NCBI GenBank assembly: GCA_017881075.1
Contig: JADGRH010000001.1
Location: 59,639-123,638 of the forward strand
From: Minisyncoccota bacterium
GTDB lineage: Bacteria; Patescibacteriota; Minisyncoccia; Phycocordibacterales; CAJBRS01
Length of the DNA stretch: 64,000 nucleotides
Direction of reading: 5' to 3'
Numbering within the stretch: the first letter of the stretch is position 1; each line of letters begins with the position of its first letter. The position numbers and the translations under genes are program-made. Below, piece by piece: positions 38,898 to 59,663 of this stretch. The notes under the pieces are model-generated. The model saw nothing but the letters and a program-made list of their open reading frames with translations. It was not told the DNA's origin and did not search any database.

Positions 38898-38900
38898 ATA

Positions 38901-42115: not shown

Positions 42116-42143
42116 CCCTCTATTTTATCACTTCCTAGCGAAC

Positions 42144-44692: not shown

Positions 44693-44705
44693 AAAGGATT
44701 CTATT

Positions 44706-44737
44706 AAAAAAACGCCGCCCAAAAGGCGGCGTTTTTT
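44706..44737. terminator. Bidirectional Rho-independent terminator
   Basis: aaaaaaa-cgccgcc-caaaa-ggcggcg-tttttt between convergent genes. Confidence 0.8.
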
Positions 44738-44743
44738 GTTAAT

Positions 44744-45145: not shown

Positions 45146-45339
45146 AGTGCACCAATGTATGTCGCCAGCGTTTCCGGCATGCGAGTAAGAATAGGTTTTT
45201 TGTAACCATTCTTTTGAGCCTTCTCCCAAGCTTCTTTTGCGGTCTTGCCACTTCCCACAACCGTGATCTCATCTTTCTTAAGTGCCACCCACAAGCCTTT
45301 ATATTTTTTATATATTTTAGTCCAATCTATAGCTGTCAT
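45142..45339 (-). CDS. Small hypothetical protein encoded upstream of, and translationally coupled to, the retropepsin-like gene
   Basis: 65-aa ORF 'MTAIDWTKIYKKYKGLWVALKKDEITVVGSGKTAKEAWEKAQKNGYKKPILTRMPE...'. Its stop TGA overlaps the ATG of the next gene. Confidence 0.45.
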   Translation of the reverse strand: MTAIDWTKIYKKYKGLWVALKKDEITVVGSGKTAKEAWEKAQKNGYKKPILTRMPETLATYIGAL

Positions 45340-45590
45340 AGTTACGTTATATCAAAATTAAGGATAATTCTCAAGACGTTCGACCGAGACACTATGATAA
45401 AGATCACAGATGAATTTTCGCCAAAGGAAAGATAAAGAAAAAAGCTTCTACTGAGACTTATTTTACACACAGGATTATCCACAGCCAATTTTTTCGGTCT
45501 TCAAAAAAGCCATTTTCTCTGGTATGATTATATAGTTAGTTAAAAGTAAGGGTCGATTTAATTACAAACTTAAATACAAACCCAATCTAT

Positions 45591-45968
45591 ATGGCAAAGA
45601 ATTTAGCTGTTATTTTTGGAGTAGTATTTGTTCTTGTCGGCCTTTTGGGCTTTATTGGCGGAGTTGGTATTGTCGGACCAAATGGCACTTTTGCCACCGA
45701 CACTGTCCACGATCTTATTCACTTCCTTTCTGGTGTGATTATGTTGATTGTGGCCTTTTCCGCTCCTCAGTCTTCTGCTGGAGTTCTGAAGGTCTTCGGT
45801 ATCATCTATCTCTTAGTCACCCTGCTCGGATTTCTCACTCCCGGTCTGCTTGGTAGCCTAATGCTTTCTAACGGAACTGATAATTGGCTACATTTAGTGC
45901 TAGGCGTCGTTATCACTTGGGCTGGCTTTAGTGGCGCAAACAACACCAGCGCTCCGATGACAGCGTAA
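45591..45968 (+). CDS. Hypothetical small membrane protein (3-4 TM)
   Basis: Hydrophobic profile. No catalytic motif. Confidence 0.45.
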   Translation: MAKNLAVIFGVVFVLVGLLGFIGGVGIVGPNGTFATDTVHDLIHFLSGVIMLIVAFSAPQSSAGVLKVFGIIYLLVTLLGFLTPGLLGSLMLSNGTDNWLHLVLGVVITWAGFSGANNTSAPMTA

Positions 45969-45999
45969 GCAATTTTTCTCACTAGAAATTTTTTAGAGA

Positions 46000-46037
46000 C
46001 CCACCCCGTCGCTTCAAAACGACGGGGTGGGTTTTTA
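46000..46037 (+). terminator. Rho-independent terminator
   Basis: acccaccccgtcg-cttcaaaac-gacggggtgggt followed by ttttt. Confidence 0.75.
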
Positions 46038-46245
46038 TGATATTATAAAATGGATGGAAATAAAAAACATTGATCATTACGTTTGTGCCGGAGAGTGCCG
46101 GAGCGAATCGGAAAAGCCCGCCACCTGTGTTGTTAAAAGCTGCTCAAAATATGGAGAACCTCTGGTTTCCTGCACTTGTGCCGATGGTCGTCACAAGGAA
46201 GTTTGGGATAAGGAACTGCCTTCGCCGACGAGGGATGGGTTTTGA
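46027..46245 (+). CDS. Small Cys-rich hypothetical protein (7 Cys in 72 aa)
   Basis: ORF separated from the CAP-domain gene by 3 nt. Its start is embedded in the terminator T-run, so its reality is uncertain. Confidence 0.25.
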   Translation: MGFYDIIKWMEIKNIDHYVCAGECRSESEKPATCVVKSCSKYGEPLVSCTCADGRHKEVWDKELPSPTRDGF

Positions 46246-46248
46246 AAT

Positions 46249-47106
46249 ATGAACTTTCTCCGACCATTAGGCTTCCTATCCTTAATCGTTCTCGTGGGGT
46301 TTTTTCTCCAACACTACCATTTCAACTTTACCGATTTCAAAAATACTACCAGCGCTCTTGAACAGAAAGTTCAGCAAAAAGTAGAAGAGAATCTGCCTCC
46401 ACCGCTCCGCGGCGGCTCCTCTATCACTCCTCCCCAAAGCGGAACGATCAGCCGCTCCGGCATCATCGCTACCACTAACAAGGAAAGGGCCAAAAATGGG
46501 GGCTTCTCCGCGCTCACAGAAAATGCCAAACTTGATGCTGCTGCGGCTGCCAAGGTAACAGACATGTTCGCCAATCAATATTTTGAACACACTTCTCCGA
46601 GTGGTAAGGGGCCAGCGGACCTGGCGAATGCACAGGGCTACTCCTACATTCTCATCGGCGAGAATTTGGCACTCGGCAATTTTACCGACAATCAGGATTT
46701 ACTGACCGCTTGGATGAATAGCCCGGGACATCGGGCCAACATTTTGAATAATCGTTTTATTGAAATGGGAGCGGCGGCCACAATGGGAATGTATGAGGGA
46801 AGAAAAGTATGGTTGGCAGTTCAGGAGTTTGGTTTGCCCCTGTCTTCTTGCCCATCAATTAATTCTAATCTTGAAGCAAGGATCCAAATAATGAAGAACG
46901 ATCTTGATATTAAGGTGGCCGCCCTTCAAGCAAAGAAAAAGGATATTGACAATACCTATCCAAAATCCGGCGATACTTATAATCAAAAGGCGGCAGAATA
47001 CAACCAAATGATAGCTGATTACAACGCTGAAGTGAAAGAAACCAGAACTGATATTGATACTTACAACAAAGGAGTCAAGGCTTTTAATAATTGTGCTCAA
47101 ACCTAA
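46249..47106 (+). CDS. CAP/SCP/PR-1 domain secreted protein with C-terminal coiled coil
   Basis: 'YFEHTSPSGKGPADLA...GENLALG...NSPGHRANIL' CAP-domain signatures. N-terminal signal anchor. Confidence 0.7.
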   Translation: MNFLRPLGFLSLIVLVGFFLQHYHFNFTDFKNTTSALEQKVQQKVEENLPPPLRGGSSITPPQSGTISRSGIIATTNKERAKNGGFSALTENAKLDAAAAAKVTDMFANQYFEHTSPSGKGPADLANAQGYSYILIGENLALGNFTDNQDLLTAWMNSPGHRANILNNRFIEMGAAATMGMYEGRKVWLAVQEFGLPLSSCPSINSNLEARIQIMKNDLDIKVAALQAKKKDIDNTYPKSGDTYNQKAAEYNQMIADYNAEVKETRTDIDTYNKGVKAFNNCAQT

Positions 47107-47113
47107 GATCTAA

Positions 47114-48280
47114 ATGCTAAATTTTTTTCACAGCTTTCATGGTAATGATCTATTAGATGTTATTCTGGTAGCCCTTTTTATCTATGTTGTTTTTATTTTT
47201 ATCAAACAGACTCGCTCTTACTTCATTTTCAATACCTTTCTGCTTCTTTTTGTCATTACCTATTTGTCGCGAACACTGGACCTTGCCCTAAGTCGTAAAC
47301 TATTTGAACCGTTAGTGGCTTTTTTCGCCATCATTTTTGTAGTGGTCTTTCAGCGTGAGATCCGTCGTTTTTTTAAATGGTTTGTTATCTCCCGTAATCG
47401 ACTGGGACGAAAAACCGAAACCATGATTACAACTCGCATTACCGACGCCATTGTGGAAGCGGTGGCTATAATGGCCAAGAAGAGAACAGGGGCTCTGATT
47501 ATTCTCTCCGGCGAATATCCTTTAGATGGCGTGGTAGAAGGAGGATTTTCTCTTGGTGGAGAAGTTTCCACCCCGCTTCTTTTAAGTATCTTTGACAGTC
47601 ATACTCCGGGTCACGACGGAGCGGTGTTGATTGATAATAAACGGGTCAAGAGTTTTGGTTTACATTTGCCTCTCACTGAAGAGTTCCGCGGCTCGCCAAC
47701 CCTAATGGGAACACGTCATCGGGCAGCTCTCGGGCTTTCAGAAAGAACGGACGCCATGATTATTGTGGTCTCGGAAGAGAGGGGAGCTATCTCTATCGCT
47801 CAAAATGGGGCACTACGAACAGTCCCCGATAGTGATAGTTTGGCGACCATCATCCGTGATTTCATTAAGGAAAATCCGCAAGAGACGCATGATTTCTGGT
47901 ATTACATTGTGGTTAAAAATTTTTTTATCAAGATTCTTTCTATTGTTATTGCTCTGGCTCTTTGGATTCTTCTTGTATTTCAGGGCAATATTTCTAATCG
48001 CGAGATCACGGTGCCGATTGAATTCAGTCATATTCCGGCGAGCGTCATTGTAGAGAAAGTGATTCCACCTGAAGTGAAGATTAATGTTTCAGGCAACAGC
48101 CGTGACGTTGCCGCTCTAAAAGAACAAGATGTAAGGGTTATTATTGATCTCTCTAAAGCGGTGGAGGGTAGCGAGCAATTTGATGTCACCAAAAAGGAAG
48201 TCGTTCTGCCGTCCTATCTTAATCTAGTCAGCATCAGCCCAACCAGAACCTTGGTCGGGCTACATAAAGTCGGACCGTGA
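47114..48280 (+). CDS. cdaA: Diadenylate cyclase CdaA fused to a YbbR-like (CdaR) domain
   Basis: 3 N-terminal TM helices. DAC domain with 'TPGHDGAVLI' and 'GTRHRAALGLSERTDAMIIVVSEERG'. Then an additional TM and ~130 aa 'REITVPIEFSHIPASVIVEKVIPPEVKINVSGNSRDVAAL...' resembling YbbR repeats. Confidence 0.75.
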   Translation: MLNFFHSFHGNDLLDVILVALFIYVVFIFIKQTRSYFIFNTFLLLFVITYLSRTLDLALSRKLFEPLVAFFAIIFVVVFQREIRRFFKWFVISRNRLGRKTETMITTRITDAIVEAVAIMAKKRTGALIILSGEYPLDGVVEGGFSLGGEVSTPLLLSIFDSHTPGHDGAVLIDNKRVKSFGLHLPLTEEFRGSPTLMGTRHRAALGLSERTDAMIIVVSEERGAISIAQNGALRTVPDSDSLATIIRDFIKENPQETHDFWYYIVVKNFFIKILSIVIALALWILLVFQGNISNREITVPIEFSHIPASVIVEKVIPPEVKINVSGNSRDVAALKEQDVRVIIDLSKAVEGSEQFDVTKKEVVLPSYLNLVSISPTRTLVGLHKVGP

Positions 48281-48411
48281 GCCTGGTGGTTTTGAGTTCG
48301 AGTCCTTAACCCCCAACAAATAAATAAAAGATAATTTTAAGATAATGTTATTGACAAAATGGCTAAATAGGCGTAGTTATATATTATTATTTGCTTAATA
48401 ATTATATTGCC

Positions 48412-49557
48412 ATGAAAAAACTTCAATTTTCAGCCATATTTTTCAGCCTAATTTTGACAGTGATGTTCTTTCCACATTTCGGATTGGCTGACACCGTTGG
48501 TCTCTCTGTGAGTAGTATGAGCAATAACAGGGTTCAGATTAACGTAAATGGCGACAGTAATTATTCTGTAGATCTTTTTTACCAAGTATCTCCGTCATCG
48601 CCCACCATCCCTGTTGGTTCTATTGGCACCACCGACTCAAGTGGTTACTTTTCTGCCATTCTAAATAGTGGCAGCTACAATCTCTCATCGGGTTATAGAG
48701 TATATGTGGAAGTGAATGGCCAGCAATCAAACACCGTGATCTGGCCGTCTTCTGACAATAACAATAACGACCAAATCACTTTCAGTCAGAACAATATAGA
48801 ATTGGATTATAACCAAAGCATCACCGTAAATATTTATGGTGGCTCCGGCTCGTATTATATTTCTTCCAATTCAAATTCTGATTTTGTCAACGCCTCAATC
48901 AGCGGTAATCAAATTTATCTCTCAACTGACAATAATAATCAGTATAACGGTGACTCGGCTACCATCCGTGTCTGTTCTCGTAATGGTAATTCAAGTTGTG
49001 GTTATCTGTATGTAACCCAGAGTGGCAATAATAATAATGAACAGGTTAGTTTCAGCCAAAATAATATTAATCTCAATATCGGCCAACAAGTTCAAACCAC
49101 TATCTACGGTTCCGGCAGTTACTACATTTCTAACAATTCTAATTCAAATGTGGTCAACGCTTATCTAAACGGCAATACTCTGAATATTACAGGAAGTCAA
49201 AGTGGTTCAGCCACTATCAGAGTTTGTTCCAATAATAGTAATTCAAGTTGTGGCAATCTTCATGTCAGTGTCAGTGGCAACTATTATAATAATAACAATG
49301 GCTACTACAATAATCCTCCCATCGTCTACGTTCAGAATCCAACCACTCCTATGTATACTCAGTCTATTTATGGCGGATTAGGCACGCCGTCCGCCGGAGT
49401 ATTCTTAAGCCATGTGCCTTCAACCGGCATCAGTTTCAATCTGAAAATGGCTCTCTTTTTCATCGGCCTCTTTATGTGGAGTGCTTTCGGTGCTTTTATG
49501 ATTCTTTCCTACCAAGAAAGCAAGAAATTACTGGCTGACCTAGAAAAGAGAAATTAA
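48412..49557 (+). CDS. Secreted surface protein with repeated Ig-like modules and a C-terminal VPSTG + TM + charged-tail sorting-signal-like module
   Basis: Signal peptide from the ATG at 48412. Repeated '...ATIRVCS.N.NSSCG.L.V..SG' modules. C-terminus 'HVPSTGISFNLKMALFFIGLFMWSAFGAFMILSYQESKK...'. Confidence 0.6.
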   Translation: MKKLQFSAIFFSLILTVMFFPHFGLADTVGLSVSSMSNNRVQINVNGDSNYSVDLFYQVSPSSPTIPVGSIGTTDSSGYFSAILNSGSYNLSSGYRVYVEVNGQQSNTVIWPSSDNNNNDQITFSQNNIELDYNQSITVNIYGGSGSYYISSNSNSDFVNASISGNQIYLSTDNNNQYNGDSATIRVCSRNGNSSCGYLYVTQSGNNNNEQVSFSQNNINLNIGQQVQTTIYGSGSYYISNNSNSNVVNAYLNGNTLNITGSQSGSATIRVCSNNSNSSCGNLHVSVSGNYYNNNNGYYNNPPIVYVQNPTTPMYTQSIYGGLGTPSAGVFLSHVPSTGISFNLKMALFFIGLFMWSAFGAFMILSYQESKKLLADLEKRN

Positions 49558-51008
49558 TTGGTGTAAATATTTACGCTGGCAGTATTATTATTTTCTTCAG
49601 TCTCGTTAATATTGTTATTAGGATCAACAGTGATTCTGATATTATTATTGCTCTGATTGTTTAATCCATCTAAACCGACGGTGTAGATTCGGCTTTCGCC
49701 ACCAGCCAGAGAGGGTTGGGTGCTATCAGTATCAAAGTTATTATTTGAGTAGTAATTGTTGTTTGAATTAGGCAAGCTGATCCGGAAGACCCAAGTGCCA
49801 CTAGAAGCCGAGCCATTGTTGGTGACTTGAAAACGGACGCCAGCTCGATCGCCATTATTGATTGAAGAAGTCTGAATGTATTGTCCGCTGGATCGATCAA
49901 TAATGCCGGTATCAAGGATACTTACCGAGAGATCTACTCCGTTTGAAGTTACTCCAGAATTAGTGGCGTTGATGGTGATTGATGCCATGTTATTATCTTT
50001 TCGCAATTCTTTCAATTGATCGGTCGGATCGATATTGATCTGCACCAGTCGGTTTTGTCCGGTCTGAACGTAATCAAAGTAGACTTCACCCGCCAGAGCA
50101 ATTCCGGGCGGAATAGAAGACTGATTGTAGAGATATTTGGTTTGATCAGAAGGGGAGACGGCGGGCAAAATAGCTCGTAAAGTCCAAGGGCCGGAAGGAG
50201 CGCTGCCAATATTATCTACTTGAAATTGAACGGTCACTCGGTCATTGGTATTGACGTCGGTGGTAGGAGTAAAGACTCCAGTATTTCGGTCTCGCACACC
50301 AATGGCCGTGATACGCACCACTAGGTCCGCTGTGCCACCGGCGGTTGGGGGATTGGAATAATTTGGATTGGCGTTTGAAGAAGAGGTGGCCTTCGGAGAA
50401 GTGTTGTTATTGTTTGATCCGTTATTGTTGGGTGGAATAGAAACAGCCGTATTAATAACTACTGAAGTTTCACCACTGACTACAATTTTTCCATCTAATT
50501 TAGAAATGAAATCAACCGAAACAGGGGCGGTGACGGCAGAGCCACTGTTATTAACGCCGATGAGTGTGAATGAAGTACTGGATGCTTCAAGGCGTAATTT
50601 ATTATTGCAGTCGACTGATTGATGATTATTGCCGGTCTGATATTCCAATTTAAAATTATTCTGGCAAGTGGTACTCAAATTGTAGTAGCCATCGATGGTT
50701 GCGCCAATGTGTTTAAAAGAAACGGTAAACGATTCTTCGGAATTGATTCGACTCTTGTCAGAGCTAACAGTGATTTTCTCTTTTGGAGAGAAAAGGGAAG
50801 AAAAGGAAAAGTTTACGGAAGCGAAAGAGGAGAGAGCGGCCGGTACCAGTTTAACGATACCGATGCTTAGAACGATTAAGACGATTAGAACAACTCCCAA
50901 GATCAAAATACGCAGGAGAATACTGCGAGAAGGGGTCTTTTCAGGAAGTTCCTCTCGGATTTCCTGTCGATTAATTGAAAAGTTATCGATGTTTTTGTCT
51001 TTTTCCAT
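49554..51008 (-). CDS. Membrane-anchored protein with two CARDB-like adhesion domains
   Basis: N-terminal TM anchor and Asn-rich linkers. Two modules end '...G.N.I.I.VDP.N.INE..E.NN', which is a CARDB-like ending. Confidence 0.5.
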   Translation of the reverse strand: MEKDKNIDNFSINRQEIREELPEKTPSRSILLRILILGVVLIVLIVLSIGIVKLVPAALSSFASVNFSFSSLFSPKEKITVSSDKSRINSEESFTVSFKHIGATIDGYYNLSTTCQNNFKLEYQTGNNHQSVDCNNKLRLEASSTSFTLIGVNNSGSAVTAPVSVDFISKLDGKIVVSGETSVVINTAVSIPPNNNGSNNNNTSPKATSSSNANPNYSNPPTAGGTADLVVRITAIGVRDRNTGVFTPTTDVNTNDRVTVQFQVDNIGSAPSGPWTLRAILPAVSPSDQTKYLYNQSSIPPGIALAGEVYFDYVQTGQNRLVQINIDPTDQLKELRKDNNMASITINATNSGVTSNGVDLSVSILDTGIIDRSSGQYIQTSSINNGDRAGVRFQVTNNGSASSGTWVFRISLPNSNNNYYSNNNFDTDSTQPSLAGGESRIYTVGLDGLNNQSNNNIRITVDPNNNINETEENNNTASVNIYTN

Positions 51009-51065
51009 AGTGTCGCTATTATATACTACATTTACTTTTTTGTCAAATAGAGCTATAATTGGCCT

Positions 51066-51719
51066 ATGAAACAGTCAGTAAAGTGGTATAAACACAAAGA
51101 GACCCTTTTCATTCTGCTCTTCGTTGGTATATTTTTCGTCTCCTTTGTCATTTTGTATTTTCTGGGACTAATTCCTAATGAGTTGATTGTTGATACCAGT
51201 AAGCCGAGCGCTCTGGACCAATTGAATGAACACTCCATTGAAAGTGTTGTTGGGGGCAATAACTCGAATAATTATTCAGTCACCATTCTCCAAGAAGAGC
51301 CCATCAAGATTGAGGCGGCCACAATCGGTTTAAGTTTCAGTATTGAAAACCCGACCACTGATAATTATCAGGCTCTGGATTCGGCACTGGTGAGGGGGGC
51401 GGTCCATTATCCCGGCTCCGGTTTTCCCGGTGCAGGCAACATGTTTATTTTTGGTCACAGCACCGGCTTCAAAGTAGTGAACAACAAGGCTTATCAAGTT
51501 TTCAATAATATTCACAATCTTCAGCAAGGTGATGAAATAAAAATTTATTCCAAGGACAAAGTTTATTCATATCGTGTCAGTTCGGTGAAGTTGGAAAAAG
51601 ACAGTAATGCTTATGTCAACTTCTCCACCAATATCAACAAATTAACTCTCTCTACCTGCAACAGTTTCGGCGCGAAAGAAGATAGGTATGTTGTGGAGGC
51701 AGACTACGTTAGCAGCTAA
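51066..51719 (+). CDS. Sortase-family transpeptidase
   Basis: N-terminal TM anchor. Catalytic His in 'IFGHSTG', Cys in 'LTLSTC' (TLXTC) and Arg in 'EDRYVVEADY'. Followed by a GC-rich hairpin ggggccggcgc-gga-gcgccggcccc. Confidence 0.75.
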   Translation: MKQSVKWYKHKETLFILLFVGIFFVSFVILYFLGLIPNELIVDTSKPSALDQLNEHSIESVVGGNNSNNYSVTILQEEPIKIEAATIGLSFSIENPTTDNYQALDSALVRGAVHYPGSGFPGAGNMFIFGHSTGFKVVNNKAYQVFNNIHNLQQGDEIKIYSKDKVYSYRVSSVKLEKDSNAYVNFSTNINKLTLSTCNSFGAKEDRYVVEADYVSS

Positions 51720-51853
51720 GGGGCCGGCGCGGAGCGCCGGCCCCGTTGACTATTTCTTCATATAGTGGTAGCAATTAGAGTGGGTAAAACCAACTATTTT
51801 CAATAGAAATTTGACAAATCAATAAAACAAAAAACAAGAAAGGGCAGTTACAG

Positions 51854-53821
51854 ATGCAACAGAACGAACCAACGCAACAGATTTCACATGCTCGCCTTCA
51901 AAAACGCTACCCCACTATGAGGATCGGTGAAGATGAGGATGAGTTCGCAGTAGATCTTGACACCACGAACACTGAGAAAAAAGGGAGACCAGTTAAGGAC
52001 CTGGATCGGGGTGAAAAACAACTTCATTTCGATCATCGGCTTCTCCGATATAATAAACCTGAATTGGCTGCAATGGCCGAACCGCTTTTGCCGGGAGATG
52101 TGAGAGAGACAAGCAATCTCTCCCTTATTTCGGGAAAGACTGGCCATGAAAGCGACGCCAGTCTTCACCGGGTTGTAAAACCCGAAATGGTCGGAGACGG
52201 AGAGAGAGGACGTGCTCTGGCTGAGAGACGACAAAAGAGACGGTTTCCCCGTGAAAATTTCGGCTTAGGAAAGCTCCAAGACGATCACATCAGAATCTAC
52301 GGCAATGCCATTGACGCCTTCGGCTCTCTAGGTCTGGTTAAAGGAAAATTCGAGGAAGGTTTCATTATCGACCTCGACCAGGGTGAAATCGAAGGAAACG
52401 TCGGCGGAAAGAGTGGCTTTAATCACAACACTCACAATATCAGTAATGTCGAGGGCGATGTCACCGGAACAACAGGAAATCCCAGCGGTTTCATAACAAA
52501 GGTAAATGTCACGGATTGGGGTAACTGGGAACAGATACTTCTTCTCTTTTTCGGGTACGATCCGCTTTTGTGGGATGGAACACCTCTTCCCTCTGATCTG
52601 GCTCCTAAGCCAGGAAGCGCCGTTGATCTTTATCGAATCGCCCGAAAAGCATACGAGACTGGCGGTGGAGGTTACACCCCTGAAATCAAGGCACTCTACG
52701 ATCTCTATCGGGTTGAGCTCGCAAGGGTTTGGAAAATCGCCGAAGAGATGCAACTGCCGTGTTATCTCGATCTGGTAACGACCGCCGACTGGAATGCCGG
52801 CGACTGGGTCTATCGAGATTTTTTCGAAAAGTGCCAAGCCAGGTACGAACAAGCGAAAAAAGACGGGGTAGAAAATCCCGTGGAAACACCATTCGTCCTT
52901 GTAAGACACGAAAGTGGCAATCTTCGCACCACGATCGCCTTGTTCTCGGAACTCGACGGTCGTTCTGATGCGGAAAAACAGTGGGAACTGCCGGATGAAC
53001 CAGTCATTCGGAACATCAGCGCGACAGTGCATTGGAGATCAGAGTGGATGCCTCAAGAAGAGATCGAGTGGCGAACGCGAGCTAATGAAAAAATCTCGCG
53101 TAAGAATATTCGTCGTCAGTTGCGTGGCAAAGAACCTTTGCCTCTGTGGCCTGTTGGATCTCTGATTCCAGAATGCGTGCGGCATGGATGGGACGGGGAG
53201 AGGAAGCTCACCCTAAGGCCCATCATAGAGTTTCCTAAACAGCCCGACAGGGAGGTCTGGAACTTTAAGCCGAGATCGGAAAGTGACGAACATTTCCACG
53301 CTCGAATGTTTCGGAAATATAGGATCTGTCCGCGACACCCACCCTTCTGGATTGAGGATTTCTATGTCTCGGTACCAGTCTATGCAGGTACAGGGAAAGT
53401 GAAATACCTCATTTGTCCGAAGATGTTGAAGATGCCGCCCGGTCCGATGCTACACGTTTCTCATGTGCGTGAATTGCTTCATAGGCCAAGAGCTGAAGCT
53501 CTGGCTTATGTGGATCGTCTTCAACCCAAAAAGCCGCAACTCAGCGCTAAAGCGCTTCAGTACATTAAAGGAAAGATGAAACCTTTGCCAAAGGAAGAGC
53601 GAAGAAGTAAAGCCAAACAGAAAACCAAGACTATCCCTCGGATTTCGGAACAACCTCCGAATTTGCCGAAGGAAGTTAATCTTCCTGCTTCAGCTACAAC
53701 TTCAACTTTAGTAGCACCGGCGCCGAATTCTTCCAAAACTCCGCCGGAACCCGAGACCCCAAAGACGGGGGTAATACGACGGCTTGCGGGTGCCGCCGCC
53801 TCCTTCTACATTAGGCAATAG
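51854..53821 (+). CDS. Large (655 aa) orphan protein, first gene of a compositionally distinct island
   Basis: Long ORF with coding-like periodicity and codon usage distinct from its neighbours (more GCC/CGC/GAG/AAG). No recognisable motif. Basic, Lys-rich C-terminal region. Confidence 0.5.
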   Translation: MQQNEPTQQISHARLQKRYPTMRIGEDEDEFAVDLDTTNTEKKGRPVKDLDRGEKQLHFDHRLLRYNKPELAAMAEPLLPGDVRETSNLSLISGKTGHESDASLHRVVKPEMVGDGERGRALAERRQKRRFPRENFGLGKLQDDHIRIYGNAIDAFGSLGLVKGKFEEGFIIDLDQGEIEGNVGGKSGFNHNTHNISNVEGDVTGTTGNPSGFITKVNVTDWGNWEQILLLFFGYDPLLWDGTPLPSDLAPKPGSAVDLYRIARKAYETGGGGYTPEIKALYDLYRVELARVWKIAEEMQLPCYLDLVTTADWNAGDWVYRDFFEKCQARYEQAKKDGVENPVETPFVLVRHESGNLRTTIALFSELDGRSDAEKQWELPDEPVIRNISATVHWRSEWMPQEEIEWRTRANEKISRKNIRRQLRGKEPLPLWPVGSLIPECVRHGWDGERKLTLRPIIEFPKQPDREVWNFKPRSESDEHFHARMFRKYRICPRHPPFWIEDFYVSVPVYAGTGKVKYLICPKMLKMPPGPMLHVSHVRELLHRPRAEALAYVDRLQPKKPQLSAKALQYIKGKMKPLPKEERRSKAKQKTKTIPRISEQPPNLPKEVNLPASATTSTLVAPAPNSSKTPPEPETPKTGVIRRLAGAAASFYIRQ

Positions 53822-53840
53822 TAGGGAAATAACGATAGTC

Positions 53841-53870
53841 GGCGTCGCGTCTTGCGCGACGCCTTTTTAA
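53841..53870 (+). terminator. Rho-independent terminator
   Basis: ggcgtcgcg-tctt-gcgcgacgcc + ttttt. Confidence 0.75.
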
Positions 53871-53960
53871 TTTTCCATTGACACCAGCTACTTATCATGA
53901 TAGATATCTGACTAGATATTGTAGGAAAAAACAACGAACAAAAACAAAAAGAAAGGTATT

Positions 53961-55424
53961 ATGATTAGTTTTTTGATAACACCGTGCAGGAAAATTTGGC
54001 CGAAAAAGCTGAAACCATGGCTTACGGCCACCATAGCCGTCGATATCGGCACCGACAATCTCGACATTTGTCTATGTGATTCAGACGGAAAGCCCGATGT
54101 CGACAAGATTCTTCAGCTGCCCACCGTTGCGCTCAAAATGGCTGATGGAGAAACTCTTCTCGCCATTGGGGATGAAGCTCGAGCGGTGATAGATCGTGTC
54201 TCTAATGATGCGGAAGAAAAAAGGCGTGTGGAGGTGATCCAGCCGGTCAGAAACGGCAAGATCGTCAATCGTCCAGTGGCGACAGCTCTTCTTAAGATGG
54301 GCCTCCGAGAGTTTTGGAAGCAGTATCCTCAAATCACGGATCAAACGCAAATCCGCCTGATTGTCACAGTGCCAATCAAGTTATCTCATGTCCAGGAACG
54401 AGAGGTAGTCAATGTGGCGCAAAACGCGACCACGAGGAATGACGATAGCAGCACCACTTCCGTCTCGGTTATCGATCAGCCGATGGCAGCAGCCATTGGT
54501 TCGGGAGTTTATAACCCGAAGAAAGTTATTGGGTCACTGATTTGTGACATCGGAGGGGGTACTCACCAGGTGATGGCCGTTTCCGGAGTAGCAGGTAACA
54601 TGGCCTCCAGGCTTTTGGAAGAAGGAGGCAACGCTTATACGGAGGTCATACAGGAGTATTGCCGCACCAAGCACAAGATCGATCCTGACTTCAACGAAGC
54701 CGAAAGGGTAAAGTGCGAGATCGGAGCAGCCGAGGTGGTTCCTGAAAAAGACGAGAACAACAAGATGACAGATGGTAATCGAACTACCAGAATCTATGGC
54801 AAACATCTCGAGACGCACTTGGGTGATTCGGTTGAATTGACCAGCGAGGAGTTGGTACCGGTCTTTGCTTCAATCCTTGGTCGTTTCGTGAGACTGATCA
54901 AGGAAGTGGGAGATGTCGCGCCCAAAGGAGTGGTTGCTGACATGGCAAAGCCAAACTCGGGTCTTTATCTTGCAGGCGGAGGCTCTCTGCTTCGCGGTCT
55001 GCCAGAATACCTGAAGAAAGAAACTGGTTACAATGTCTATGACATCCCGAATCCTCAAAGAGTTGTTGTGATTGGGGCGGCCATGGCACTGGGGAGTCCC
55101 ATCCTCTCCTTCAACTTTGTCCGGGAGCCTATCATTGAAGATCCAAAACGAAAGGGTTTGCCGAAAGCTGTCAAACGACCGTCGTTCAGCAACTTGAGCG
55201 GTCAAAGTCCGACCTTCAGATGCTCAACTCTTCCATCGGAGGATGGAGAATCGGATCCGGTCACCCAATACTCGAAGGGCACAACTTCTGATGGTAAGAC
55301 CTTCGAGGAGAAGGCCTTGCTCCTGGGTGTAGGCGTGAAGTATCTCGACGATCTCACACCCGCTGAGAAGAGACGACTCGCGGCGCAGAAGAAAATGCCG
55401 GTAATGGAGACGCAGACAGCCTAA
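53961..55424 (+). CDS. Divergent MreB-like actin-family ATPase with ~90-aa C-terminal extension
   Basis: 'IAVDIGTDNL' (phosphate 1), 'IDQPMAAAIGSG', 'GSLICDIGGGTHQVMAVS' (phosphate 2), 'GGNAYTEVIQEY...ERVKCEIGAA', 'GLYLAGGGSLLRGLPEYLKKETG' (adenosine motif). These align in the MreB order. Confidence 0.7.
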   Translation: MISFLITPCRKIWPKKLKPWLTATIAVDIGTDNLDICLCDSDGKPDVDKILQLPTVALKMADGETLLAIGDEARAVIDRVSNDAEEKRRVEVIQPVRNGKIVNRPVATALLKMGLREFWKQYPQITDQTQIRLIVTVPIKLSHVQEREVVNVAQNATTRNDDSSTTSVSVIDQPMAAAIGSGVYNPKKVIGSLICDIGGGTHQVMAVSGVAGNMASRLLEEGGNAYTEVIQEYCRTKHKIDPDFNEAERVKCEIGAAEVVPEKDENNKMTDGNRTTRIYGKHLETHLGDSVELTSEELVPVFASILGRFVRLIKEVGDVAPKGVVADMAKPNSGLYLAGGGSLLRGLPEYLKKETGYNVYDIPNPQRVVVIGAAMALGSPILSFNFVREPIIEDPKRKGLPKAVKRPSFSNLSGQSPTFRCSTLPSEDGESDPVTQYSKGTTSDGKTFEEKALLLGVGVKYLDDLTPAEKRRLAAQKKMPVMETQTA

Positions 55425-55442
55425 GGGTAGTAATTAGTCAGC

Positions 55443-55472
55443 GCCGCGGAAACCTAGTTTCCGCGGCTTTTT
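55443..55472 (+). terminator. Rho-independent terminator
   Basis: gccgcggaaacc-tag-tttccgcggc + ttttt. Confidence 0.8.
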
Positions 55473-55596
55473 ATATAAAGTAGCTTCTACGGTAAAATTT
55501 AATTGACGTATAAGATTTAGTGTGATAAGGTCAAAAAGAATTTTCATTTCGTCGAATTCTCGACGAAACAGCTCTTAAACAAAGAAAGGAACATAA

Positions 55597-56319
55597 ATGG
55601 CTAAACCAGCCGTAAAGAAAGTCTCAGTGCAGAGGCGCGCGGTTCAATTGGTCAGTCAATTCATTTGCGCTGGCCGCAAGTTTCATTGGCGCAGGGTCGG
55701 AATTACTCTTCTCATGCTTGTAGTTTTTCCAATCTTGATGTGCACTCTTTGGCATCACGGAGGAAAAATCGCTTCTCTCGGGTGGCGTACAACCACTCAA
55801 GGATTGCAATATTTTGGTAGTCACATGCAGATGGCAACGAAGTTGGCAAAAGTGCAGACAGCGCTCAACCTTACCGACTACGATCTTCGAGTGACACAGC
55901 AAAAGTTTGCCAACAAAACCGAAGAAGCGGCGGAAAATGCAGACGAGGCAAAGGCCGCGCACAAATCGGAAGCGGAGTTGCGTGAGTCCCTAGCTGCGAA
56001 GAAGGAATCTTTGGACGCCGAGAAAAAAGCCACCACTAGACTTGAGGGAGAGGTCACACAGGCAAACCTTAATGGCCAGAAGCGGGTGGAGAAAGCTCAA
56101 GCGGAAGCAGCTTCAAAGATCGCTGATGCCAATGGTGTAGCAGCGGCTGCCGTTAATCGCGCCAAAGTAGCCGAAGCTGCGGTAAACAAACTTCCAGACG
56201 AAAGTTTGAGCAAAGCCAAAGCCGAAGCGGAGCAAAAAAACGCCAGATTGGAAGCGGAGCTTAGACAATCGAGAGCGCGACACCTCGCAGACGTCAAAGA
56301 ATTACTGAAGGGCTATTAG
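55597..56319 (+). CDS. Membrane-anchored coiled-coil protein (island gene)
   Basis: One TM helix ('ITLLMLVVFPILMCTLW'), then a ~170-aa Ala/Glu/Lys-rich coiled coil. Followed by the terminator at 56334-56360. Confidence 0.45.
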   Translation: MAKPAVKKVSVQRRAVQLVSQFICAGRKFHWRRVGITLLMLVVFPILMCTLWHHGGKIASLGWRTTTQGLQYFGSHMQMATKLAKVQTALNLTDYDLRVTQQKFANKTEEAAENADEAKAAHKSEAELRESLAAKKESLDAEKKATTRLEGEVTQANLNGQKRVEKAQAEAASKIADANGVAAAAVNRAKVAEAAVNKLPDESLSKAKAEAEQKNARLEAELRQSRARHLADVKELLKGY

Positions 56320-56382
56320 TGCTCAATCAGGACGCAGTGCGGAACACCGATTCCCGCACTGCTTTTTATTTTAGGGCTGTTT

Positions 56383-56411
56383 CAAATTGCCCTTGACTTT
56401 ATTTCAGGGAT
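56383..56411 (+). promoter_or_regulatory. Candidate sigma70 promoter GCCC-TTGACT-N17-TAATAA (extended -10 TGa)
   Basis: ttgact at 56383-56388. tgataataa at 56403-56411. Confidence 0.5.
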
Positions 56412-56512
56412 GTGATAATAAGAGAAATGAATCGTCAATAGTTAATAAATCTTGAACAAGTATTCAGGGTTTATGTTGACAAACAAACAACGCAGACAAC
56501 CCGGGAGGGTTT

Positions 56513-57097
56513 ATGAATATATCGAAAACAAACAAGCCATTCGCTCTCATTCTCGCGCTCATCGCGGCCGTTTCCTTCGTCGCCACCCCCGTGGCGTTCG
56601 CTGGCGACAGGAACGAAGCGAAGCCGAAGCAATCGGCGATACCTACTAAAGCAGCCGCCAAGAAACTACCAAACGAATTCACTGGCATTCCTGAAGCCAC
56701 GCCAGTGGATCAAATGATCGCAATTGATACGACACCGACCGGAAACGATCCGAACAAAAAGAAACTCCAACAGCTAGCTACAGCTGCCGACCCCACGGCG
56801 TCAGCAACTCCGGACCCTACGGTGGAAGCCAAAGCTGGGATCGTCGCCGAGATTCGCAGGATGGCGAAAGCCAAGATTGACGAGATCACAGCCGAAAAAG
56901 ATGATGTTTCGAGCAAGTACAACGAACTGGTCAAAGGCTACAACAATCTGCTCACGCAACTAAACACTGCGAATGGCGATAAGGCTAAGTTGCAAGCCAA
57001 TTACAACGTCTTGGCGGCAGCGTTGGATGGAGCCGACGACATCAAAACGACGCTCAAGCCGAAAGAAAACCCGGCACCGACGGTCGTTAAGAAATAA
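56513..57097 (+). CDS. Secreted coiled-coil protein (island gene)
   Basis: Signal peptide 'ALILALIAAVSFVATPVAFA', then a predicted helical/coiled-coil C-terminal half. Terminator at 57116-57152. Confidence 0.45.
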   Translation: MNISKTNKPFALILALIAAVSFVATPVAFAGDRNEAKPKQSAIPTKAAAKKLPNEFTGIPEATPVDQMIAIDTTPTGNDPNKKKLQQLATAADPTASATPDPTVEAKAGIVAEIRRMAKAKIDEITAEKDDVSSKYNELVKGYNNLLTQLNTANGDKAKLQANYNVLAAALDGADDIKTTLKPKENPAPTVVKK

Positions 57098-57169
57098 GAC
57101 ACGATCAATTTCGATCAGCGAGCGCAGGGAAGTCCTTTGCGCTCGCTATTTTATTTAGAGACGAAGCCC

Positions 57170-57198
57170 TTGACTTTCTACTACTAGTATGATAATAT
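57170..57198 (+). promoter_or_regulatory. Candidate sigma70 promoter GCCC-TTGACT-N17-TAATAT (same architecture as 56383)
   Basis: ttgact at 57170-57175. tgataatat at 57190-57198. Confidence 0.5.
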
Positions 57199-57256
57199 AC
57201 AGGTAAATCAGGTTCTAGACACTATGTTTAGGGCCGCAACACGGAGAAGTATACAG

Positions 57257-58057
57257 ATGAAAAAACAGATCTTTGCAACACTGATCATGGCCCTAGTGGC
57301 TGGATCGATGATCAATAACGTCTCAGCCCAGACTTCAGCATCAGTGGCCGCTGACGCTGACGTTGTGGCACGCGCGGAAAAATTCAAGGCAAACAGGGTG
57401 CATATCGCAACTCTGGAGCAGGAAAATGCTCGGCTCACAGCAAACGCCGAAGTCTACAAAGAAGCTTTGGGAACAGAGCCCGTTGTGACTTCCTCGCCTG
57501 CGGCAAGCACAACCGCTTCACCAAGCGCGACGACAGACACCAAAGCGGAGAGCGCGACGAAGGACGCCACCGAAGCCGAGATCAAGAGATTGGTCGAGGA
57601 CAAACGGCGCGAAATCGCGGCAAGGAAAAATCTTCCTGGCCCGACAGCGAACAACACCTCTGCGGCACCGGCGAGCACGCCCGCAGACCCAATGGATCGT
57701 GAAGGCTACACCAAGACCTTGGTGGGTAGCTACATCCAGAAGGTGGAAGACCCGCGTTCTAAGCCCGTCGAAATCTTGGCCCGCAAGATTACCCTGGTTG
57801 GAGAAACCGAGGGAAAGATGCGCGAGCTTTGTTTCTGGACTGATGGGCACCACAACATTACCACGGGGTATGTGAGTGGTGGGGTGAAGGCGCATTTGAA
57901 TCGTCCGGATCATCAAACCTGGAAAAGGGGAGAGATCCGCGACGGACAGACAGGCAACATTCTTGTCGTCTATTACGTCGATTCGCCGGAAGGGAAGGTG
58001 GTCACAGCCTCCCGCCGGGAGTACCATCAAAAGCCGTCAAAGAATCAGCGTCGATAG
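57257..58057 (+). CDS. Secreted protein with coiled-coil N-terminal part, Ala/Thr/Ser-rich linker and a C-terminal globular domain (island gene)
   Basis: Signal peptide from the internal Met (MKKQIFATLIMALVAGS). C-terminal region 'CFWTDGHHNITTGYVSGGVKAHLNRPDHQTWKRGEI' has no match I recognise. Terminator at 58080-58107. Confidence 0.45.
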   Translation: MKKQIFATLIMALVAGSMINNVSAQTSASVAADADVVARAEKFKANRVHIATLEQENARLTANAEVYKEALGTEPVVTSSPAASTTASPSATTDTKAESATKDATEAEIKRLVEDKRREIAARKNLPGPTANNTSAAPASTPADPMDREGYTKTLVGSYIQKVEDPRSKPVEILARKITLVGETEGKMRELCFWTDGHHNITTGYVSGGVKAHLNRPDHQTWKRGEIRDGQTGNILVVYYVDSPEGKVVTASRREYHQKPSKNQRR

Positions 58058-58116
58058 GACGCAAAACGACTATAAGCGACAAGTGCAGGGAAAAAGTCCC
58101 ACACTTGCCGCCGTTT

Positions 58117-58144
58117 ATTTAAAAACTTGACAAATTAATGATAT
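58117..58144 (+). promoter_or_regulatory. Near-consensus sigma70 promoter TTGACA-N16-TATAAT
   Basis: ttgaca at 58117-58122 and tataat at 58139-58144, about 65 nt upstream of the 58212 gene. Confidence 0.55.
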
Positions 58145-58211
58145 AGTGTATAATACTTAAATCATTGATTTTTAGCCAAAAAAGCATAATTTAAAAATAA
58201 TCAACAAAAAC

Positions 58212-59663
58212 ATGAACAAAATTTTAAAAACAATTAAATACAGCTTAGGAATTATGGTAATCCTTGCCTTTGCTTCTATTTCTATGGGGCAAGTTGTTTA
58301 TGCGGATACCCCATCTGATTATGGATCAGGAAGCTACTACGACTACACTCCTGATTATGGATCTGGAAGTTATTACAACTATACCCCTGATTATGGATCC
58401 GGCAGTTACTATAATTATACTCCTGACTATGGCTCAGGCAGTTACTACGATTCTTCTCCGACCTACACTGATAATACTTCCGGCAATGGTTACGGCACCG
58501 ACTATGGTTATTACTACGGAGACAACTGTGGCTCTAGTTGCGACACTACTAATTATGGCACTGACCAGGGTTATTACTATGGTAATAACTGTGATACTAG
58601 TTGCGACACCGCTAGCAATGATTATGGTTACGGTGGCTCTGGTGGTGGCTACGGAGGCTGTTCTTACGGTTGTGGTAGTAGTAACTCCGGAAGTTATGGC
58701 ATGCCATCCTACAATTCCTACGGCACTCCCTCTTACAATCCACCATCTTACAATTACAACCCCACCCCTACCTATTACAATCCTCCATCTTCTAACGGCT
58801 CCGGCGCTATCGTAGTGAATAACAACAATAACAATACAAATAACAACACCAACAACAATAATGTGGTAGTGAATATTCCTCCGGTCAATACTGTCACTCC
58901 TCCGCCACCCCCACCTCCTCCTGTCTACAACAACCTTACTGCTTACTGTGTTGGCACCCCTTCTAATCCTCAAATTGGAGATAATGTTACATGGAGAGTC
59001 TATGCCTCGGGGGGTAATGGTAACTACAATTATTCTTGGAGAGGAGATGTCTCTGGTAATAACACAACTGAAAACGCCAACTATTATAATAGTGGTACAG
59101 AGAGTGCTTCAGTCAGGGTAACAACCTCAAATGGCGATAGCTTTACTACCGACCAATGTGAAGTAAACGTGCAACCACGAGGATCAACCATTTCTAATGT
59201 TACGGTCTATACTCCACCAACAGGCACTCCTAGCGCAGGTGTATTCCTTAGCCAAATTCCTGCTACTGGCATCAGCCCTACGATGAAATTGGCTCTCTTC
59301 ATTCTCGGACTCTTTCTCTGGAGCGCCTTCGGAGCCTACATGATTCTGGAACGACGCAAGATGGGTACATTGGCTACTGCTGGTATCAATGCTTCCGACA
59401 TGGAAGATGAGGCCGACGAAGTGGTCACTGAACCGACGGAATCAATTCCAGCTGACGATCTTGAAAGTAATCTTTCTTTCCGAGCGCGCGAGAACAATGT
59501 TCTCATCTCTCGAGATGGTCTTGCCGTCATAATGAATCGAGCCAATGGCAATCAGGGCGAGGCTGAAAACATCCTTTCACAACTCGTGAGCAAGGTTTCC
59601 AGAAATGACGGAGATTACGCTACACTGAACGGAGAAAAAATTAATAAATTACTTAATAGTTAA
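58212..59663 (+). CDS. Secreted Tyr/Gly/Ser-rich repeat protein with a C-terminal IPATG + conserved TM module followed by a ~105-aa cytoplasmic tail
   Basis: Signal peptide. 4 tandem 36-nt repeats encoding YGSGSYY(D/N)YTPD. Cys-rich and Asn-rich stretches and a Pro8 run. 'TPSAGVFLSQIPATGISPTMKLALFILGLFLWSAFGAYMILERRK' is shared with the 48412 gene. Confidence 0.6.
   Translation: MNKILKTIKYSLGIMVILAFASISMGQVVYADTPSDYGSGSYYDYTPDYGSGSYYNYTPDYGSGSYYNYTPDYGSGSYYDSSPTYTDNTSGNGYGTDYGYYYGDNCGSSCDTTNYGTDQGYYYGNNCDTSCDTASNDYGYGGSGGGYGGCSYGCGSSNSGSYGMPSYNSYGTPSYNPPSYNYNPTPTYYNPPSSNGSGAIVVNNNNNNTNNNTNNNNVVVNIPPVNTVTPPPPPPPPVYNNLTAYCVGTPSNPQIGDNVTWRVYASGGNGNYNYSWRGDVSGNNTTENANYYNSGTESASVRVTTSNGDSFTTDQCEVNVQPRGSTISNVTVYTPPTGTPSAGVFLSQIPATGISPTMKLALFILGLFLWSAFGAYMILERRKMGTLATAGINASDMEDEADEVVTEPTESIPADDLESNLSFRARENNVLISRDGLAVIMNRANGNQGEAENILSQLVSKVSRNDGDYATLNGEKINKLLNS

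Follow-up and report, generated by a model that had tools for sequence, protein, structure and literature searches.

A candidate Patescibacteria-specific sortase cassette and its putative dedicated sorting signal

We have analysed a 64 000 nt stretch of DNA (the window) from an uncultured, ultra-small member of the Patescibacteria and describe a locus that probably constitutes a Patescibacteria-specific sortase cassette, made up of a CARDB protein, a sortase and a substrate (protein B), with a second substrate (protein A) encoded nearby, in which a C-terminal module common to A and B would act as a dedicated sorting signal. The initial annotation had offered such a dedicated recognition module as one of two readings, and it is now supported by a catalytically intact sortase, by a large lineage-restricted module family and by gene linkage in both directions.

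The locus and its two module-bearing proteins

The features of the locus are as follows.

48412..49557, + strand: protein A, 381 aa from the ATG at 48412 (alternative TTG start at 48391)
49381..49509, + strand: module of A, GTPSAGVFLSH-VPSTG-ISFNLK and then the helix MALFFIGLFMWSAFGAFMILS; VPSTG at nt 49414-49428
49554..51008, - strand: two-CARDB membrane protein, divergent from the sortase gene, with an N-terminal membrane helix
51066..51719, + strand: sortase, 217 aa (Pfam Sortase PF04203)
51854..58057, + strand: GC-richer block of five genes between the sortase gene and gene B
58212..59663, + strand: protein B, 483 aa, the second module carrier
59223..59351, + strand: module of B, GTPSAGVFLSQ-IPATG-ISPTMK and then the helix LALFILGLFLWSAFGAYMIL; IPATG at nt 59256-59270
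59436..59660, + strand: cytoplasmic C-terminal domain of B, its last 75 aa, with an AAA+ lid-like fold

By inspection, protein A begins with a Sec-type signal peptide (MKKLQFSAIFFSLILTVMFFPHFGLA, with DT after the predicted cleavage site), followed by an N/S/G-rich ectodomain made of two Ig-like repeats of ~90 aa, the sorting module and a 16-residue tail; full-length homologues that likewise terminate in the module (36-39% identity, ~380 aa) are present in the Patescibacteria loci L039, L018 and L055. Protein B likewise starts, by inspection, with a signal peptide, which ends in VVYA ahead of DT. A low-complexity stretch rich in Y, G, N and C, encoded by DNA with 36-nt repeats, leads to an Ig/PKD-like domain at aa ~231-329; next come the sorting module, the membrane helix, an acidic linker and the lid-like domain. 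The gene for B lies ahead of thrS/dnaE, a position orthologous to that of the substrate gene linked to the sortase in L001, L002 and L074-L079. That two otherwise unrelated secreted proteins have a C-terminal module in common, as first noted, was borne out when A (GTPSAGVFLSHVPSTGISFNLKMALFFIGLFMWSAFGAFMIL) was aligned with B (GTPSAGVFLSQIPATGISPTMKLALFILGLFLWSAFGAYMIL; E=5e-20), no alignable similarity being found between them beyond this module of ~50 residues; the description of the two copies as almost identical was an overstatement, 33 of 50 residues (66%) being the same. The VPSTG and IPATG pentapeptides were located as listed above, and in all six frames of the window the combination of motif and helix was found in these two copies only. 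There are 42 residues C-terminal to the motif Gly in A and 130 in B, ~100 of the latter lying past the helix.

The module is conserved between A and B at the protein level, not at the DNA level: its DNA is ~64% identical, synonymous differences are numerous and a serine codon is switched (TCC/AGC); this rules out recent gene conversion as the source of the likeness. A broader suspicion, prompted solely by the atypical ~100-residue tail after the helix, had been that the shared C-terminus and the tail of B are artefacts of recent duplication or gene conversion, of a frameshift or of fusion to a downstream ORF. This is refuted by the divergence of the module DNA, by the conservation of the B tail, which is colinear in orthologues (49-53% overall identity) and kept in distant proteins, and by its confident fold, and we consider its probability negligible.

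Of the five products of the intervening block, one is a divergent MreB/ParM-like actin, three are coiled-coil-like and the remaining one, of 655 aa, has no assigned function. At other sortase loci the block is missing or different and the substrate gene is found directly 3' of the sortase gene; the block is probably outside the sorting system.

The module family, its sortase and the CARDB partner

With a profile built from the two modules alone, 191 of 1.84 billion cluster representatives were matched at E<=1e-3, 78 of them at E<=1e-10; the likeness between the A and B modules is therefore far beyond chance. [VIL]PxTG, whose conserved residues account for 4 of the 57 profile columns, is kept in 150/150 of the matches listed (of 191 representatives), and these also keep GV[FY]L[SN]Q ahead of the motif and K..LF..GL..WS in the membrane helix. 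The claim that conservation extends upstream of the motif and through the helix thus holds across the family, as seen in the module logo, where G-6 (86%), V-5 (86%), [YF]-4 (91%) and L-3 (99%) precede an invariant P, T and G (100%) and K+10 (88%), F+14 (87%), W+21 (92%) and S+22 (95%) follow, ahead of a K/R cluster. The layout of motif, spacer of ~6 residues, helix of ~20 residues (+11..+30) and K/R cluster (+31..+36) is the tripartite one of LPXTG-type signals, namely xPxTG, a hydrophobic helix and basic residues. Ectodomains in the family include SpaA-like, PKD, dockerin, FN3-like and Ig-like domains, which are typical surface-protein modules. A degenerate DNA pattern recovered 69 true module genes, all from Patescibacteria-type MAGs; the module is a Patescibacteria-wide, lineage-restricted family. 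When A, B and two VPYTG-type modules were compared with curated anchor models of the LPXTG-anchor/Gram_pos_anchor type in NCBIfam and Pfam, there was no match at E<=10 except to LPXTG_double (12.2 bits against a cut-off of 48), and no description of the module and cassette was found in the curated family models or literature searched.

The initial annotation had placed a sortase with the motifs 'LTLSTC' and 'FGHSTG' beside a two-CARDB membrane protein, and the ORFs together with the PF04203 and CARDB matches confirm this. The sortase matches PF04203 at 71.6 bits (gathering cut-off 26.6; E=6.3e-20) and has an N-terminal membrane anchor at about residues 13-37. Its triad is intact, the catalytic residues, whose absence had been named as grounds for rejection, being His131 in 'FGHSTG' (nt 51456-51458), Cys198 in 'LTLSTC' (nt 51657-51659) and Arg207 in 'EDRY' (nt 51684-51686), all in register with 2kw8 and with Clostridium perfringens SrtD (4d70), the best solved relative (8.9e-9); among 120 homologues conservation is 100% for His, 100% for Cys and 99% for Arg. 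The suggestion that the enzyme could be classified by HMM held as far as membership of PF04203, whereas it scored below every NCBIfam class cut-off (classes A-F and GN): 45.2 against 140 and 41.9 against 165 for class D, 36.6 against 160 for class E, 35.2 against 160 for class C and 19.8 against 166 for class F, with no match reported to the class A and B models and 35.3 against 39.35 for the general TIGR01076 model. Eight relatives likewise fell below the class cut-offs. On these scores, the sortase belongs to a clade outside the curated classes.

The roughly equal scores for classes C, D and E also bear on a different reading, namely that the enzyme is a class C-like pilin polymerase, with the module proteins as pilus subunits linked by lysine isopeptide bonds. 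V/IPxTG-type first residues are typical of pilin sorting signals, and SpaA-type prealbumin domains occur in large members of the module family. However, the class C score is far below its cut-off, neither the pilin motif (..YPK) nor an E-box was present in any of the 150 matches listed, Lys is entirely absent from the mature ectodomains of A and B, and a single sortase was seen per cassette; we therefore regard pilus assembly as very improbable.

Gene linkage between the module and this sortase family is strong in both directions. When loci were selected by module gene and the sortase was sought within the same 8-kb block, the sortase lay upstream on the same strand in 24/24 loci that also held one, never downstream, and within 125 bp of the module gene in 14 of them; on the other hand, 45/69 module-gene blocks were without an adjoining sortase, the blocks not being centred on the module gene. 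When loci were centred on the sortase, the module gene was downstream on the same strand in 9/10, and in the one exception a transposase had been inserted there instead. The 49554..51008 protein (Pfam CARDB, 2.7e-11, two stretches) is a conserved cassette partner of the sortase: its homologues adjoin the sortase gene divergently in 13/24 module-selected sortase loci and 10/10 sortase-centred loci, and its helix and juxtamembrane sequence '..VPxALSSLASAxVSxxSLF' are conserved.

Proposed mechanism and the cytoplasmic tails

The mechanism that we propose is that A and B would be exported via their N-terminal signal peptides, whereupon the C-terminal module would keep them in the membrane. Within the module, the strand GV[FY]L[SN]Q would be exposed and [V/I]P[Y/A/S]TG would stand ~6 residues outside the membrane, followed by the conserved helix (K..LF..GL..WSAF.AY) and by a cluster of Lys/Arg residues that stops transfer. 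The sortase, with its His131/Cys198/Arg207 triad, would recognize this extended module and may be expected to cleave peptides such as GVFLSQIPATGIS and GVYLSQVPYTG, the cut presumably falling between Thr and Gly by analogy with all characterized sortases. The acceptor of the ectodomain would be an amine of the envelope, a peptidoglycan precursor being the likeliest candidate, and the helix plus cytoplasmic tail would be left behind in the membrane as a stub; the cleavage itself, the acceptor and the role of the tails are what we infer. A peptidoglycan acceptor is plausible because the window also encodes BacA, an SLT-type transglycosylase and a PG_binding_1 protein, and related loci contain YkuD and a Mur ligase. 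Conservation of the helix is only suggestive of helix-helix recognition by the sortase: a test for a conserved face was significant for the sortase anchor (F15/F19/F23/L30/G34/P37; P=0.003) and not for the substrate helix (P=0.13).

With a classical sorting signal, the protein stops within a few residues of the helix, whereas A continues for ~16 residues and B for ~100. The long domain that the initial annotation noted after the helix of B is no artefact and is conserved, but such extension is the norm in the family and not a peculiarity of B: a median of 59 residues (range 29-393) follows the motif, and nearly all module proteins extend from 10 to more than 350 residues beyond the helix. The tails are conserved elements of three types: some are short basic helices, some are clamp-loader-type lids and some combine a lid with a collar. 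The tail domain of B (helix-strand-helix-helix-strand-helix) has, with high confidence, the small helical AAA+ lid fold; only an acidic linker of ~25 residues separates it from the membrane helix, and B-type tails were found in 28/150 of the matches listed, distant family members included. Neither B nor any of 10 long relatives gave a match to a Pfam AAA-type ATPase domain (P-loop core), and we rejected the identification of B as an AAA+ protein, as the lid-like domain is present on its own. In some relatives the lid is followed by a collar-like domain and, in some (e.g. P0192), the two form a cytoplasmic part larger than the ectodomain.

These tails could mean that the C-terminus is kept and has a function within the uncut protein. 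Indeed, the module might be, as in the second reading of the initial annotation, a permanent, non-cleaved type I anchor. Its PxTG strand and helix would then serve structure or assembly, for instance by docking to the CARDB protein or to the sortase acting as a scaffold, so that the proteins would be transmembrane links from an extracellular Ig-like domain to a cytoplasmic docking domain. Conserved cytoplasmic extensions in nearly all module proteins are in keeping with this, a cytoplasmic part as large as that of P0192 would be an odd investment for a discarded peptide, and the helix is conserved well past generic hydrophobicity. Nevertheless, P, T and G never vary, stand at a constant distance from the membrane and are exactly the residues that a sortase needs, the module genes share operons with a catalytically intact sortase, and conservation of the tail fits cleavage equally if the stub has a function; a non-cleaved anchor is, in our judgement, rather unlikely.

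If the module is a cleaved sorting signal, as we favour, the lid of B is most plausibly a protein-protein docking piece, acting either before cleavage, to position or retain the precursor, or afterwards, with the stub reporting or organizing sorting. A bolder and doubtful extension is that helix and tail are a working part and not a discarded leader. Processing by the sortase at the surface would then leave the stub behind or be governed by it, and the stub would dock to a cytoplasmic partner or oligomerize, thereby coupling surface-protein anchoring in these ultra-small episymbiont-type bacteria to an intracellular process via an exapted clamp-loader piece, with the CARDB protein as a third membrane subunit.

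Significance and comparison with known systems

Much of bacterial diversity belongs to the Patescibacteria (candidate phyla radiation). Their cultivated representatives to date live attached to other microbes, so that surface proteins are central to their biology; to our knowledge, how these are anchored is largely unknown. Previous reports go no further than that a sortase family is common in Patescibacteria (PMC6744442) and that 'sortase motifs' occur in their surface proteins (PMC5220378). New here are an HMM-searchable signal (GV[FY]LSQ[VI]P[YA]TG, then K..LF..GL..WSAF), the cognate enzyme clade and a conserved three-gene cassette; taken together, they would make it possible to predict, for thousands of uncultured genomes, the surface proteome that depends on sortase. 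The motif is also a new option for sortase-based protein engineering. Moreover, the locus indicates that sorting signals can bear conserved cytoplasmic domains, one of them an ATPase-less clamp-loader lid, which raises testable questions on signalling or assembly across the membrane. No lid domain on the cytoplasmic end of a surface-protein sorting signal was found in the libraries or literature searched. The B tail is comparable to clamp-loader AAA+ lids and to the orphan lid-like domains at DNA polymerase B-subunit N-termini (2v6z, 2keb, 2kxe); unlike clamp-loader lids it has no ATPase core and the usual Arg of 'GD.R' is replaced (GN.. in B).

The classical system, exemplified by Staphylococcus aureus SrtA and protein A with its LPXTG cell-wall sorting signal, is resembled in the predicted membrane-anchored cysteine transpeptidase with a His-Cys-Arg triad and TLxTC motif, in substrates with an N-terminal signal peptide and tripartite C-terminal signal, and in enzyme and substrate genes that are often adjacent. 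It differs in that the first residue of our motif is V/I and never dominated by L, 6-12 upstream residues and the K, F, G and W-S of the helix are conserved across a phylum-level group, conserved cytoplasmic elements come after a module that is not at the extreme C-terminus, LPXTG-anchor HMMs miss the module, and the sortase is accompanied by a conserved CARDB partner. The nearest curated classes are D (42-45 bits) and E (37 bits), specific for LPNTA and LAxTG, respectively; the present enzyme is like them a housekeeping-like single sortase, yet it and its eight relatives score 3-4 fold under the cut-offs (140-165 bits), and the motif and the Patescibacteria host lineage are different. The exosortase/PEP-CTERM, archaeosortase/PGF-CTERM and rhombosortase/GlyGly-CTERM systems each pair a dedicated enzyme, a polytopic membrane protein unrelated to sortase, with a lineage-specific C-terminal domain; our module, like those domains, is HMM-detectable over its whole length (motif, helix and basic cluster), although theirs lie at the extreme C-terminus without a cytoplasmic domain and ours is followed by cytoplasmic elements. 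Finally, adhesins of Streptococcus gordonii are said to feed a 'C-pep' circuit in which C-terminal peptides released by sortase are sensed in the membrane, a precedent for a helix-plus-tail stub with a function of its own after cleavage; those peptides are short and generic, whereas the tails described here are conserved motifs or folded domains.

Shared C-terminal module and its family

Arrangement of the sortase locus in the window

48412-49557, + strand: protein A, an ORF with no Pfam match
49554-51008, - strand: two-CARDB membrane protein (Pfam CARDB, 2.7e-11)
51066-51719, + strand: sortase (Pfam Sortase, 6.3e-20)
51854-58057, + strand: five-gene, GC-richer block between the sortase and B
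58212-59663, + strand: protein B, an ORF with no Pfam match
beyond B, - strand: ORFs of thrS and dnaE

The initial annotation held that A and B, otherwise unlike proteins, share a C-terminal module, and this proved correct: their similarity is confined to a C-terminal stretch in which 33 of 50 residues are identical (E=5e-20), and the pentapeptides VPSTG (A) and IPATG (B) each precede a hydrophobic helix. Among all six-frame ORFs in the window, the combination of motif and helix was found in none besides these two. The module DNAs are approximately 64% identical and differ by numerous synonymous substitutions and a TCC/AGC serine switch, so that recent gene conversion was rejected and the likeness is attributed to selection at the protein level.

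A profile built from the two window modules alone was used in an exhaustive HMM search of 1.84 billion representative proteins, giving 191 matches at E<=1e-3 and 78 at E<=1e-10; [VIL]PxTG lies within the module in all 150 of the matches listed (the best 150 of 191). A logo built from 145 of these 150 proteins bears out the earlier claim that conservation reaches beyond the motif, both ahead of it and through the helix. Upstream it comprises G(-6) 86%, V(-5) 86%, Y/F(-4) 91%, L(-3) 99%, S/N(-2) 95% and Q(-1) 76%, followed by the motif itself, V/I/L(0) 99%, P 100%, Y/A(+2) 85%, T 100% and G 100%, and downstream K(+10) 88%, L(+13) 79%, F(+14) 87%, G(+17) 72%, W(+21) 92% and S(+22) 95%, and Lys/Arg residues cluster at +31 to +36. 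Among the pentapeptides VPYTG is the commonest, those of A and B being minority variants. When a degenerate DNA pattern of the module was run against bacteria and archaea, each species represented by one genome, 69 of the 70 matches were true module genes, every one in Patescibacteria-type MAGs; the genome from which the 64-kb window comes is itself of the Paceibacteria/Parcubacteria type within Patescibacteria. The single archaeal match, in a Thermoplasmata MAG, was discarded as a chance match lacking the module, and the same pattern gave no match in viral contigs. None of the Pfam and NCBIfam models detects the module at E<=10, and full-text literature searches did not find a description of it. 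Earlier work has described a sortase family as common among CPR bacteria (PMC6744442), ‘sortase motifs’ have been noted in CPR surface proteins (PMC5220378), and the CPR ‘Pam’ pili (2026 preprint) are a chaperone-usher-like system distinct from that described here.

The ectodomains joined to the module include SpaA-type prealbumin, PKD, dockerin, FN3-like and Ig-like domains, which are typical of surface proteins. That the module proteins polymerise as a pilus is highly improbable, since a pilin motif or E-box occurs in 0 of 150 representatives (cluster representatives matched by the module profile) and lysine is absent from the mature ectodomains of A and B. Lysine avoidance as a sortase-linked trait was itself rejected: K has a median of 1.0% in the ectodomains, but R (1.2%) is likewise depleted, and low lysine therefore reflects general composition. 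In B, four tandem 36-nt repeats encoding PDYGSGSYY[DN]YT (58315-58458) sit in a Tyr/Gly/Asn/Cys-rich low-complexity N-terminal region whose length varies among orthologues.

The sortase and its gene neighbourhood

The sortase is anchored in the membrane at its N-terminus. Its catalytic residues, His131, Cys198 (in TLSTC) and Arg207, align with those of C. perfringens SrtD (4d70) and B. anthracis sortase (2kw8), so that the Cys and His motifs read from the sequence at the outset stand on alignment; among 120 homologues the three residues are conserved in 100%, 100% and 99%, respectively. Assignment to a class by HMM, suggested with the initial annotation, reached no curated cut-off: the two class D models came closest, with 45 and 42 bits where the cut-offs are 140 and 165, respectively, followed by the class E model (37 bits against 160). 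Eight relatives, one of them publicly labelled ‘class E’, likewise fall far below the class cut-offs. Since it lies far under every curated class model, we place the enzyme in an unclassified clade within the sortase superfamily. The closest homologues of the enzyme come from ‘Candidatus Paceibacterota’, ‘Patescibacteria group’ and ‘Minisyncoccia’ MAGs. A conserved stripe on the anchor (F15/F19/F23/L30/G34/P37), with a helical moment of conservation of 0.20 compared with 0.07 in shuffles (P=0.003), supports a putative helix-packing surface. The test for a conserved face on the substrate module helix was not significant (P=0.13), and helix-helix recognition is for this reason a conjecture.

Linkage of enzyme and module was assessed from both directions. 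A sortase of this family is present in 24 of 69 module-selected blocks of 8 kb (9 of the 19 whose upstream sequence spans 5 kb or more); in all 24 it lies upstream of the module gene on the same strand, never downstream, with a gap within 125 bp in 14. Conversely, a module-bearing gene follows downstream on the same strand in 9 of 10 sortase-centred loci (the window, L001, L002 and L074-L080, the L loci being from other genomes), directly adjacent in five. The sole case among the ten without a module-bearing substrate gene in the next 8 kb is L080, where an IS-type transposase (rve; 8800-9720) lies immediately 3' of the sortase. A divergently transcribed CARDB protein is present in all 10, and most loci share the frame gyrB ... 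CARDB(-) / sortase(+) / substrate(+) / thrS(-) dnaE(-), in which the cassette substrate has B as its positional orthologue. The helix and juxtamembrane segment of the CARDB protein are also conserved; all three cassette proteins thus have conserved membrane-proximal parts, a pattern compatible with, though not proof of, a membrane complex.

In other sortase loci the substrate gene lies directly 3' of the sortase, and the 6.3-kb block at 51854-58057 is an insertion separating enzyme from substrate gene. It encodes a 655-aa protein of unknown function, a divergent MreB/ParM-like actin and three coiled-coil-like proteins; the actin matches Pfam MreB_Mbl (4e-45), yet falls far under the NCBIfam MreB cut-offs and has weak matches to phage families, one of them a partition protein. 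GC content is 0.49-0.51, compared with 0.40-0.44 nearby, with a strong A-over-T skew, and a 20-nt imperfect direct repeat with TTGACA flanks the block (51804-51823 and 58120-58139). L002 carries a strongly diverged copy and L001 a bactofilin-containing block instead. The position looks like an insertion hot spot, or the block like a mobile cassette.

Further features of the window were observed. The distance from gyrB to the CARDB-sortase cassette is approximately 0.1-2.5 kb in relatives (L001, L002, L074-L079), whereas the window has approximately 19 kb of extra genes (30700-49500), including FMN_bind/ApbE, an ECF-type sigma factor, an HlyD/ABC/MacB-FtsX efflux set, BacA, a PG_binding_1 protein, a CAP-domain protein, CdaA and protein A. 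The CdaA-type diadenylate cyclase (CdaA_N + DAC; 47114-48280, +) is fused in a single polypeptide with a YbbR domain, which is usually encoded as a separate regulator protein. A giant ORF of 3194 aa (22-9606, +), whose sole Pfam match is a Peptidase_S74 intramolecular chaperone domain of the endosialidase/tail-spike type (aa 2886-2944), is probably a self-processing surface fibre.

Cytoplasmic tails

After the motif, A has 42 residues and B 130, approximately 100 of which lie past the helix. The long domain of B had been thought atypical, a view that does not hold for the module family, in which a post-helix cytoplasmic extension is the rule (median 59 residues after the motif, range 29-393).

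Tail types in the module family

(i) Short helix such as ‘..RRNEKxKExEILxSl’; the ‘..SYQESKKLLADLEKRN’ of A resembles it
(ii) Linker with ‘..RIEAFKxxNMxKKGl’ at the extreme C-terminus; the majority type
(iii) Long, with a 65-75-residue domain ‘LE.rARe...LiS.DgL..Ia......A..iL..Lv......dW.vLN.EKi..iL’; includes B

The tail of B is colinear and conserved in the L001 and L002 orthologues, and a profile from these three tails matches 28 of 150 representatives. An AlphaFold2 model from a 26-sequence alignment (pLDDT 89.3) has the order helix-strand-helix-helix-strand-helix, and its fold most resembles E. coli delta (9.6), the RFC small subunit (9.5) and gamma/tau (9.3), then Hda, DnaA, RuvB and Lon, with the orphan lid-like N-terminal domains of DNA polymerase B-subunits also in the list. 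Sequence searches agree more weakly (tail profile against the RFC5 lid, E=4e-4; faint NCBIfam matches to DnaX and RFC), and a word-indexed homologue search gave no match for the C-terminal 166 aa of B or for the tail-domain alignment; it was through the exhaustive HMM search that the family came to light. On the model the extension of B is a folded AAA+ lid-like domain at aa 409-483, with no ATPase core and joined to the helix by an acidic linker of approximately 25 residues. In long relatives the domain after the lid had no PDB sequence match and was placed, as collar-like, by fold comparison alone. A frameshift or fusion origin of the B tail was rejected on its orthologues and its matches among representatives; these, together with the fold and the DNA divergence, also excluded an artefactual origin of the shared C-terminus and tail. 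Conservation of the tails points to a role for the C-terminal part.

The size and conservation of the tails are what a permanent, non-cleaved membrane anchor would lead one to expect, but this explanation, which we consider improbable, does not account for the invariant P/T/G or for the operonic sortase.

Proposed mechanism and comparison with known sortase systems

The module proteins have an N-terminal signal peptide, a surface-type ectodomain, xPxTG approximately 6 residues outside the helix and a basic cluster, a layout that matches a sortase sorting signal, with an intact sortase in the same operon. The family, the operon linkage and the intact triad support the dedicated recognition module proposed in the initial annotation, and on the best-supported reading, which we think reasonably likely, this sortase clade has the module as its dedicated signal; the sortase would cleave it between T and G and transfer the ectodomain to an envelope acceptor. 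Peptidoglycan is a plausible acceptor, given the peptidoglycan-related genes in the window (BacA, SLT transglycosylase, PG_binding_1 protein) and in related loci (YkuD, Mur ligase). Conservation beyond the motif, in the residues before it and throughout the helix, suggests that recognition may involve a longer surface than in classical systems, perhaps with helix contacts to the sortase anchor or the CARDB protein. The tail may serve ahead of cleavage, for positioning or retention, or the stub that cleavage leaves may have a function.

The system opens a direct way into the surface proteome of a vast group of uncultured bacteria, and the mechanistic question that it raises is a clear one. In kind it is a sortase system, but it differs from known ones in the unclassified clade of its enzyme, in an extended signal undetected by curated models, in its conserved CARDB partner and in a sorting signal bearing cytoplasmic domains that derive from a lid of the clamp-loader type, to which relatives add a collar.
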